Shown here: piece after piece, positions 46,048 through 48,294 of the stretch
Position numbering within the stretch: the first letter of the stretch is position 1
Layout of the letters: every line of letters starts with the position of its first letter
IMG/VR virus record: IMGVR_UViG_3300036832_001166
Span: 32,001 to 96,000 of that record
From: a virus
Length of the DNA stretch: 64,000 nucleotides
Direction: 5' to 3' (one strand)
Position numbers and translations under genes: made by a program
The notes under the pieces: model-generated
Told to the model about the DNA's origin: nothing
Seen by the model: only the letters and a program-made list of their open reading frames with translations
Databases searched by the model: none

Positions 46048-46184
46048 CCCGCAAACTGCGGGATCTTTCCGGTTGTGGGCGCCCGGGGGCGGGTGTAACG
46101 TGAATGGTCTACCGGCCAAAGCGCACGTCGTGTGCTCGGCTGTCTTGTTCGCGTGGAACGGGCCCGGCGGGCCCTGGAGGTCGT

Positions 46185-47996
46185 ATGCCGTCTGAGGCTG
46201 TCACCAAGGTGCTGTCCCGTCTGTGGGCGTTGGACTGTGACGCGAAGGGCTCAGAGCAGCACGGCTGGAACGCCAAGTGCCCGGCGCACGAGGACCGCAG
46301 CCCGAGCCTGAAGCTCGACCAGGGCGACGACGGCCGCGCGCTGATCTACTGCCACGCCGGATGCACCCTGGAGGCGCTGACGGCCGCGATGGCGCTGGAC
46401 CCCTCAGACCTGTTTGAGGCCGAGCCCGCGCCGATCCCCGAGCGGGTCGTGATCGAACGCTACGACTACGTCGACGAGGACGGTACGTTGCTGTTCCAGG
46501 TCGAGCGGATGCGCCCCAAGGCGTTCCGCCAGCGCCGCCCCAACGGCCACGGCGGCTGGGAGTACTCCCTCGGCGATGTGCGCCGCGTCCTGTACCGGCT
46601 GCCGAAGGTGATCGAGGCGGTCAAGGCCGGGGAGATCATCTGTGTCGTCGAGGGCGAACGCGACGTCCACACCCTGGAGGGCAAGGGCAAGGTCGCGACG
46701 ACGTGCCCCGGCGGCGCCGGGAAGTGGCGCGACCAGTACTCAGAGACGCTCCGCGGCGCGAAGGTCGCGATCATCCAGGACGCCGACCCGCTCGATCCGA
46801 AGACCGGCAAGCGCCCCGGCCAGGATCACGCCCTGCAGGTCCGCGCGGCGTTGGACGGCGTCGCTGCTGCTGTCAAGGTGTTCCAGCCCGCCGTCGGCAA
46901 GGACGTCACCGACCACGTGAAGGGTGGCCTGCCGCTGTCTGAGCTGGTCGACGTCACCGACGGGGAGCCTGCTAGACCGAAGATGGAGGTGCTGTCCGCG
47001 CGCGCCATGATGGAGCTGCCGGACCCTGACCAGGAGGGGTACCTGCTCGGCCCGCTGATCTACCGCGGGCACCGCATCGTGATCGGCGGCTGGACCGGCC
47101 ACGGAAAGACCACCTTCTGCATGCACATGGTCGCCTCCGCCGTCGAGGGCCGCGAGTTCCTGCGGCCCGGCTGGACCGGCAAGGGCAAGCTCAAGGCGCT
47201 GGTCGTCGACGTCGAGCAGGGCACCAAGACCGTCAAACGCGTGCTCCGCGAGGTTGGCCTGGACCGCTCCGAGCAGGTGCAGTACCTACGCGTCGCTGAC
47301 GGGCTCGCGCTCGACAACGACCCGGACGCGATCGCGTTCATGGAGAAGACGCTGCACGAGGGCCACTTCGACATCGTCCTTGCCGACCCGCTGTACAAGC
47401 TCGGCCGCGGCGATCTCAACGACGCGCGCGCCGCCACCGACCTGATGCGCCGGTTCGATGACTGGCGTGAGCGCTACGAGTTCGCGCTGCTGCTGCCTAT
47501 GCACTGCCGCAAGCCGAAGGAGACCGCCAAGCTGTCCGCGCATGACTTGTTTGGAAGCAGTGCCTATCAATGGGGTGCCGAGGCCCTGCTCGGGATCGAG
47601 CGCAAGAGCCGGTCGCTCACCTGGCTGCACTGGTGGAAAGACCGCGAGGGCGAGCTGGTCGAGGACGGCGCGCAGCTCGGCGGCCACTGGAACCTGCACT
47701 TCGACCGGCGCCGCGGGTTTGAGAAGTACCCCGAGCATGAGCAGGACAAGCTCGTCGAGGTGTCCGCCACCCCCCGCTTCGATCTCGACGAGTTCTGCCT
47801 CGACGCGATCAAGCAGCTCGGCACCGCCACCCGCGAGGACATCCACCGCCGCCTGCGCCACCAGGGCCGACTCGATGTCAGCGTCGCGAAGATCACCCGC
47901 GCCTGCGAGCGACTCGGCGGCCGCGGCGTCATGAGCAACGGCGAACACTTCCTCAAGGACCGCGCCTACTACCTCCAGGACGAGCTGACGGTGTAG
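46185..47996 (+). CDS. Primase-helicase (zinc finger + TOPRIM + RepA/AAA_25 helicase)
   Basis: CPAHED...CHAGC; VVEGERD...DAD; GWTGHGKTT Walker A; IVLADP Walker B; MHCRK. Confidence 0.92.
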   Translation: MPSEAVTKVLSRLWALDCDAKGSEQHGWNAKCPAHEDRSPSLKLDQGDDGRALIYCHAGCTLEALTAAMALDPSDLFEAEPAPIPERVVIERYDYVDEDGTLLFQVERMRPKAFRQRRPNGHGGWEYSLGDVRRVLYRLPKVIEAVKAGEIICVVEGERDVHTLEGKGKVATTCPGGAGKWRDQYSETLRGAKVAIIQDADPLDPKTGKRPGQDHALQVRAALDGVAAAVKVFQPAVGKDVTDHVKGGLPLSELVDVTDGEPARPKMEVLSARAMMELPDPDQEGYLLGPLIYRGHRIVIGGWTGHGKTTFCMHMVASAVEGREFLRPGWTGKGKLKALVVDVEQGTKTVKRVLREVGLDRSEQVQYLRVADGLALDNDPDAIAFMEKTLHEGHFDIVLADPLYKLGRGDLNDARAATDLMRRFDDWRERYEFALLLPMHCRKPKETAKLSAHDLFGSSAYQWGAEALLGIERKSRSLTWLHWWKDREGELVEDGAQLGGHWNLHFDRRRGFEKYPEHEQDKLVEVSATPRFDLDEFCLDAIKQLGTATREDIHRRLRHQGRLDVSVAKITRACERLGGRGVMSNGEHFLKDRAYYLQDELTV

Positions 47997-48273
47997 GCGC
48001 GATCGCGATGGAGCCCCCACCCCGATAGGGCCACCAAGGGGACCACGGTCGCTCCTCGCCTGGAGCGGAGGCCGTCCGGTAGACCATTGAAGCGCGGAGC
48101 TTGTAGCCCGGGAACGGGGTGAAGTGCGTGGCGCGCTGAGGTCGACGGAGCCCGACGAACTGTCGATGGACTCAGCGTCGGAAGCTCAGGTTTTTCTGCT
48201 CCCCAGGGGCAGTAGGCCTAAGCCCTCGCCTGCCTCGGATCTTGCATCGGAAGGGCCCGACGGTAAGGGGGGG

Positions 48274-48282
48274 TGCTAACAT
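48274..48282 (+). promoter_or_regulatory. Extended -10 for the orphan GGY-NN RNA
   Basis: TG-C-TAACAT 12 nt upstream of the first unit. Confidence 0.5.
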
Positions 48283-48294
48283 CGTGTGCGATGC

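Follow-up and report, generated by a model that had tools for sequence, protein, structure and literature searches.

A recoded primase-helicase patch as a candidate VIPR-insensitive allele in a soil phage and a guide-less relative

We analyzed a 64,000-nucleotide stretch of DNA (the window) comprising bases 32001-96000 of IMG/VR virus record IMGVR_UViG_3300036832_001166, a complete soil-phage genome of 125,432 bp with direct terminal repeats. Within its primase-helicase gene, a footprint of twelve in-frame codons (47541-47576, + strand) was found to be the single best genomic match to an orphan guide RNA of the VIPR type that is encoded 300 bp downstream of this gene, and every mismatch between the two falls in a Leu or Ser codon. 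In VIPR, the Vipr protein forms a filament on RNA built of GGY/NN units, in which NN pairs with two target bases and one base is skipped, resulting in dsDNA binding and transcriptional silencing (10.64898/2026.04.26.720920, 10.64898/2026.04.26.720927, 10.64898/2026.10.15.759431). We consider it probable, at roughly 0.6, that the patch is a VIPR-insensitive allele of the coding sequence for an essential helicase motif, acting in self-immunity in this phage and in escape in a relative that lacks the guide.

Guide and target in the primase-helicase gene

The orphan guide RNA (vrRNA) gene spans 48274-48399 and consists of a promoter-like box, twelve targeting units, two further units with GGG, and a hairpin. 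The targeting part (48295..48353, + strand) is made of GGY-NN units with one 4-nt unit (GG-GA) and one GGA-TG, in the order GGC-CC GGC-CA GGC-TG GGC-TA GGC-GC GGC-GA GG-GA GGC-CC GGC-AA GGC-AG GGC-TC GGA-TG, and is antisense to the helicase sense strand. An earlier reading made from the sequence alone had proposed the pattern CA GA CT TT GG TC TC GC TA CA TG GG, which is exactly the reverse complement of this NN string. A plain 2-of-3 guide was also considered and rejected, as this pattern is absent from the window and the NN pairs are separated by GGY. It was noted that GATGC at 48290-48294, 5' of the first GGY unit, is a possible 13th unit that would pair with an Ala codon (GCN), and that such a GCN codon directly follows the footprint in every relative.

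We scanned both strands of the whole genome for matches to the guide with a 1-nt skip. The footprint site matched at 19/24 paired positions, and no other site exceeded 16/24. The footprint codons CAT GAC TTG TTT GGA AGC AGT GCC TAT CAA TGG GGT encode the peptide HDLFGSSAYQWG, which fits the guide at 12/12 residues. The five mismatches are confined to six-fold codons, namely position 1 of Leu TTG and positions 1 and 2 of Ser AGC and Ser AGT, and all lie inside a recoded core of TTG TTT GGA AGC AGT (47547..47561, + strand) where relatives read CTG TTC GGC TCN TCN. Only Leu, Ser, and Arg codons can change their first two positions silently. The two Ser switches place four purine:purine mismatches in adjacent central units of the RNA-DNA hybrid. 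The codons given in the earlier reading, in frame with the open reading frame (ORF) at 46104-47996 (+), and its count of seven A/T-ending codons among the twelve were likewise correct, and the gene is otherwise G/C-ending as it had stated (A/T-ending codons make up 9.7% gene-wide).

The primase-helicase ORF (46104..47996, + strand) encodes 630 aa with a Toprim-like N-terminal part and an AAA_25/SF4 helicase C-terminal part, of which residues 308-472 match Pfam AAA_25 (E=4e-21). A profile of its homologues matches the T7 gp4 primase/helicase structure 1q57 in the Protein Data Bank (PDB; E=3e-8), and a single-sequence PDB search with the helicase domain returned no match; no close solved relative was found. 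In the alignment to 1q57, the footprint peptide is aligned with the T7 gp4 segment 'SITDLRGSGALRQ' (DLRGSGALRQ), which we take to be SF4 helicase motif H4. The protein resembles the T7 gp4-type (SF4) primase-helicases in combining Toprim with a RecA-like helicase and in the targeted peptide that aligns with the gp4 segment, while it differs in the distance of the match, made at the profile level only, and in its AAA_25 type. Distant homologues in cultured Arthrobacter and Gordonia phages carry the annotation DNA primase/helicase, and the host of this phage is probably an actinobacterium.

We sought to compare the codon spelling across relatives, using an exact search of IMG/VR for perfect targets and a search that allowed all synonymous spellings of the peptide in IMG/VR, JGI metagenomes, and GTDB genomes. 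Codon counts cover 16 lineages, with two variants included, of which 14 are those besides this phage and the guide-less relative; approximately 20 further exact-peptide homologues known as proteins were left out of the counts. Five independent IMG/VR phage contigs were found to be perfect 24/24 in-frame targets at the homologous helicase codons, with the same peptide and with helicases 60-68% identical to that of the guide-carrying phage. The NN match was 100% in these five lineages and 87.5-96% (21-23/24) in a further four or five, with the lowest value (79%) in the guide-carrying phage and the guide-less relative. The prediction that relatives would use CTN/TCN/TCN held for Leu in 14/14 lineages, for the first Ser in 13/14, and for the second Ser in 10/13. 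This spelling is ancestral on the protein tree, being present in all other ingroup clades and in the outgroup. A single TCN-to-AGC switch at one footprint Ser was also observed in four of the other lineages (L009 4646, L024 11140, L026 5594 on the - strand, and L036 2016 on the - strand), each of which would knock out one guide unit (22/24).

From these matches, a mechanism can be proposed that draws on the work on Escherichia phage SUSP1. The orphan vrRNA with Vipr would bind dsDNA encoding the footprint peptide in related phages, pairing with codon positions 1-2 and skipping the wobble base, and the primase-helicase gene of rivals would be silenced during co-infection. The carrier would need the identical peptide itself; at positions 1-2, the only silent changes open to it are TTG for Leu and AGY for both Ser. 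Vipr-vrRNA filaments are reported to nucleate from the guide 3' end (10.64898/2026.04.26.720927), and on the target this end would fall on the side of His-Asp. All 12 (perhaps 13) units could hand off on the DNA of a rival, while on the carrier's own gene progress would be met at unit 3 by a wobble and at units 6-7 by two dead units, with reduced binding expected. The five-codon core would then act as a selected, transferable unit, serving self-immunity in the carrier and escape in the VIPR-less relative. Expression of the guide, abolition of binding by the five mismatches, and any order of events, whether guide first or recoding first, are points that we infer.

A guide-less relative with an own-like island

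The guide-less relative is IMGVR_UViG_3300036846_000555 (G001, with loci L006/L007), a 122 kb genome estimated as 99% complete. The same searches that were positive on the guide-carrying genome recovered no Vipr match, no GGY-NN tract, and no guide DNA in G001. It nonetheless carries the TTG, GGA, AGC, and AGT codons of the guide-carrying phage, and the core differs only by TTC for TTT. The earlier reading had held that TTG/AGY codons in guide-less relatives would refute its proposal; formally, G001 is such a relative, but its patch was found to be a recombinant island.

The primase-helicase gene (46104-47996 compared with L007 10029-11927) is a three-part mosaic relative to G001, with nucleotide identities of approximately 92-100% (primase part), 76% (helicase block), and 50% (C-terminal tail). 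The two phages share 92% nucleotide identity in the N-terminal two thirds and across alignment columns 30-360, compared to 76% across columns 360-565, which contain the footprint. G001 shares 85-86% identity with two of the target phages, L008 and L001, in columns 480-550. Trees of the separate blocks, built with the footprint removed, conflict with strong support: the N-terminal block places the guide-carrying phage and G001 as sisters (support 1.0), and the C-terminal block nests G001 among the target phages with the guide-carrying phage outside. Columns 480-565 contain 45 informative sites at which the guide-carrying phage departs from the target-clade consensus. G001 follows the guide-carrying phage at only six of these, five of which are inside codons 512-516, the recoded core (hypergeometric test; P=2.9e-5).

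In G001, the patch thus forms an own-like island of 15 nt within a helicase block that otherwise resembles the targets. The test of this island is the strongest single result of the analysis and is independent of the null models described below. The island points to selection on the patch, as an escape or immunity allele, rather than neutral sharing. The five-codon core therefore has a history of its own, having been either moved as a micro-tract or kept by selection while its flanks were replaced. For the footprint block, the block trees together with the informative sites lead us to reject plain shared ancestry as the source of the codons in G001. Convergence is also improbable, given that both genomes carry GGA (8% usage) and AGT (8% of AGY), two rare codons that escape does not require.

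It was noted that a small gene convergent on the guide hairpin (48398-48874, - strand; L007 12477-12950, - strand) has no Pfam family. The gene is 96% identical in nucleotides (48408-48871) and 98% identical in amino acids between the guide-carrying phage and G001, with neighbours that are far more diverged, which has the look of a recent exchange. Together with the 92% identity of the primase part, this indicates that G001 exchanges DNA with the lineage of the guide-carrying phage. It is therefore plausible that G001 and this VIPR system encounter each other in shared cells.

Statistical strength and competing explanations

We assessed how often three such switches would be expected under several null models. 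Codon usage alone gave P(TTR, AGY, AGY) = 0.06 x 0.41 x 0.41, or approximately 0.01. Site-specific frequencies for three switches at three positions gave P of about 1.5e-3, and a rough branch-length model for the path to the guide-carrying phage gave about 2e-3; the site-specific and tree-based nulls overall center on approximately 2e-3 with a range of 2e-4 to 1e-2. Among invariant Leu, Ser, and Arg columns, the guide-carrying phage switched codon family at 3/3 positions in the footprint compared to 1/38 outside, and none of the 38 other columns carried a switch common to this phage and G001. The comparison of 3/3 with 1/38 overstates the significance, because at conserved positions the Ser families differ between the guide-carrying and target phages in 36% of cases (Leu, 11%).

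The same background of Ser switching fits a first alternative, in which TTG, AGC, and AGT were neutral in an ancestor and the guide persists only in a genome that already differed, making the patch a precondition of the guide and not a response to it. This permissive drift appears unlikely. It accords with the frequency of AGY among the Ser codons of this phage (41%), with the codon-usage null of only about 0.01, with the presence of the codons in G001 without VIPR, and with a guide cassette that looks inserted after a conserved intergenic element. Drift leaves unexplained, however, the sharp five-codon island in the target-like block of G001 (P ~3e-5) and the switching of all three six-fold footprint codons on one lineage against 0/38 shared switches elsewhere.

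The third positions of the patch were then examined. Genome-wide, 1.2% of 12-codon windows contain at least seven A/T-ending codons, and for rare codons the patch ranks 285 of 31,168 windows; the A/T enrichment is the weaker evidence. TAT, CAA, and GGT are common to the guide-carrying phage and to L008, a 24/24 target without recoding; GGA and AGT are part of the core shared with G001; and only CAT and TTT are private to the guide-carrying phage. The suggestion in the sequence-only reading that skipped bases matter somewhat was therefore abandoned, since three of these codons also occur in a perfect target and GGA and AGT belong to the core. The extra A/T third positions are unexplained by the skip rule, and the comparison with L008 argues against a role for them in escape. 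A C-to-T mutational footprint of VIPR binding at flipped-out skip bases was likewise set aside as unsupported, as only CAT and TTT are private and no such bias was found in relatives.

A patch unrelated to VIPR was considered next to these data. Candidates are a cis-acting element in the DNA or RNA, for instance an origin-like AT-rich spot or a pause site, a site recognized by a different guide of contiguous type (a host CRISPR spacer, for example), and a chance cluster of rare codons. The low GC content of the 36-nt patch (47%, compared to 68% for the genome), its place in the top 1% of rare-codon windows, though about 300 others are as extreme, and the skip-position GGA and AGT common to G001, which the skip rule leaves unexplained, would all fit this view. 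We nevertheless regard it as quite improbable, given that the patch coincides exactly with the guide footprint and that positions 1-2 are changed only in the three codons that allow it. In addition, the AT-rich third positions are not common to G001 as a block. Allowing up to 3 mismatches, no further copy of the core was found in the window, which speaks against this explanation and also led to the rejection of templated mutation from a nearby repeat. An Rfam scan of the downstream interval 47900-52000, which did not include the patch at 47541-47576, recovered no family at E<=1 apart from weak noise.

Another alternative is tuned partial self-targeting, in which the carrier's own Vipr-guide complex weakly represses the adjacent primase-helicase gene for autoregulation or timing. 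The proximity of the guide to the gene that it nearly matches is compatible with this, and so is the self-match, which reaches the published 80% threshold if the 13th unit is counted. Such self-targeting seems very improbable, as a regulator would be expected to fit its own target, and this guide instead has perfect matches in five other phages and its poorest match in its own gene. Two adjacent units of the self-match are also fully mismatched, purine against purine.

Several observations weigh against a VIPR-insensitive allele, and these were set against the evidence above. The Leu switch produces only one rG:dT wobble on the RNA-DNA hybrid, and the self-match is borderline with regard to the published 80% NN threshold (79.2% with 12 units, 80.8% with the GATGC unit). 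Ser family switches are common at this divergence. The single AGC switches in the four other lineages occur at about the background rate of conserved Ser columns and so cannot be called partial escapes. The recoding is one evolutionary origin in two genomes (n=1), the same guide was found in no other IMG/VR contig, and a close Vipr relative was not found by peptide patterns. Reduced binding or repression by Vipr-guide at the carrier's own site is a prediction, and a search of the three VIPR preprints recovered no mismatch-tolerance series (10.64898/2026.04.26.720920, 10.64898/2026.04.26.720927, 10.64898/2026.10.15.759431). Of the originally proposed self-immunity by recoding, the guide, the wobble register, and the mismatches at six-fold codons stand; that the recoding was caused by the carrier's own guide cannot be shown, because the VIPR-less G001 has the same codons.

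The VIPR locus and its relation to known systems

The remainder of the locus was also characterized. A lone RAMP gene, vipr (50585..51301, + strand), encodes a homologue of the SUSP1 Vipr protein; the translation of 50585-51298 matched PDB entry 36pp_D, 'SUSP1 Vipr protein', over residues 18-199 (phmmer; E=1.1e-15), and no Pfam match was recovered for it. Two linked GGY-NN arrays were identified by sequence downstream of vipr (51301..51716, + strand). The combination of Vipr homology and GGY-NN RNA places the locus in the VIPR class, and we found a Vipr homologue, twelve units with two non-matching units and a hairpin, and in-frame targets with a 1-nt skip. The GGY-NN pattern was encountered 32 times in the genome compared to 4 times for a control pattern.

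For the guides of the linked arrays, neither the phage's own genome nor the examined relatives contained an outlier match, which leaves the helicase as the only self-homologous target. Array 1 (51307-51429) decodes to the peptide [IM]PYGV[DE]SR[DE]LGG[WC]..., for which no homologue was found in the phage's own genome and no match in relatives G001-G005 or the other examined loci. This implies that array 1 targets another group of elements than the orphan guide does. Outside the window, approximately 16 units form a fourth GGY-NN tract (G000:C1:110437-110514, - strand) within a stretch that is also an open frame, so that it may be either a vrRNA or coding sequence; it gave no outlier match in the genome or the examined loci.

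For the orphan guide, a putative extended -10-like promoter, TGCTAACAT (48274..48282, + strand), was assigned by its sequence and its likeness to the repeated TG-C-TACAAT cassettes of this phage; a sigma-70 two-hexamer scan found nothing. The non-targeting 3' end (48354..48399, + strand) was recognized by its fold and consists of GGCTT GGCGC GGG and a 34-nt hairpin (48366-48399). Its two units (TT, GC) fit neither the phage's own gene nor those of rivals, and the arrangement parallels the GGCAC GGCAC GGG with hairpin that closes the linked arrays. A conserved intergenic element (48014-48262; L031 ~1500-1760) of approximately 250 nt immediately follows the helicase stop codon. It is 78% identical to target phage G002, has a near-invariant core of GAAGCGCGGAGCTTGTAGCCC...GGGGTGAAGTGCGTGGCGCG, and is absent from G001; its role could be that of a structured RNA or of a replication element. 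The intergenic homology stops just before the guide promoter, for which reason the cassette looks inserted. In every relative, the helicase gene is separated from a RusA-like resolvase gene (51744-52268) by a variable slot of 2-4 kb, and among the slots compared (window 47997-51743; L003, L007, L008, L009, L010) only this phage carries a VIPR locus. Three divergent minus-strand ORFs lie near vipr at 48398-50584, with only a sub-threshold DUF2786 match in Pfam.

The published rules of VIPR comprise a 1-nt skip, silencing from either strand, and no self hits of at least 80% (10.64898/2026.04.26.720920). In VIPR systems, a vrRNA comprises 9-16 GGY/NN units in tandem and ends in a structured 3' tail, it is expressed and co-purifies with Vipr as an RNP that represses transcription, an accessory vap gene next to vipr defines the type, and targets are mostly wobble-aligned in the coding sequence of competing elements. 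Wobble skipping is described in the preprints as blocking silent escape, and escape as needing amino-acid changes. Six-fold codons are unmentioned in these texts, with leucine appearing 0 times and serine only as a catalytic residue (10.64898/2026.04.26.720920, 10.64898/2026.04.26.720927, 10.64898/2026.10.15.759431). VIPR itself, its code, its use against competing phages, and lower scores on a phage's own vrRNA locus are thus known, while silent escape through six-fold codons is not described in the preprints.

We tentatively propose, as a possibility that we hold with less confidence than even odds, that Leu/Ser/Arg family switching is a general silent route of escape and self-immunity, that the five-codon 'immunity patch' moves between co-infecting phages as a selected micro-tract, and that the guide and its recoded target form a poison-antidote (greenbeard) pair marking kin. 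If true, the general route would overturn the published view that VIPR targets need a protein change to escape. On the main reading, this locus would itself give a natural counter-example to silent-escape-proof wobble skipping, in that positions 1-2 can change silently wherever the targeted peptide holds Leu, Ser, or Arg. A phage could aim a guide at a motif common to its rivals and yet spare itself, and a rival could acquire the same five codons. Should binding confirm this, it would guide the design of programmable VIPR tools, in which six-fold codons could be either avoided or exploited, explain self/non-self discrimination without a protospacer-adjacent motif (PAM), and make codon-family islands under guide footprints a signature for mapping phage-phage conflicts in metagenomes.

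Compared to the VIPR systems of SUSP1 and a P. fulva prophage, the locus is alike in its lone Vipr, its GGY-NN units with wobble-aligned 1-nt skip, its targets in the coding sequences of competing phages, its structured guide 3' end, and the lack of a strong self match. It differs in that the target gene is also needed by the carrier with an identical peptide, and in the discrimination by Leu/Ser codon family. The SUSP1 3' end is a pseudoknot tail, whereas the fold obtained here is a simple hairpin, and the host here is probably an actinobacterium. The self-sparing, vrRNA-targeting vrRNAs of VIPR-null phages (10.64898/2026.10.15.759431) provide a second parallel, as these guides also score lower on their own locus and so avoid autoimmunity. 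Their targets are non-coding and free to vary, in contrast to the protein motif targeted here, in which only six-fold codons can vary. CRISPR systems must likewise spare their carrier, which they do through discrimination by repeat-handle pairing, and their targets escape by mismatches such as PAM or seed mutations. Unlike CRISPR, the system described here has no PAM and a non-contiguous guide, third-position silent mutations would be useless against it, and silent escape would be limited to Leu/Ser/Arg family switches.

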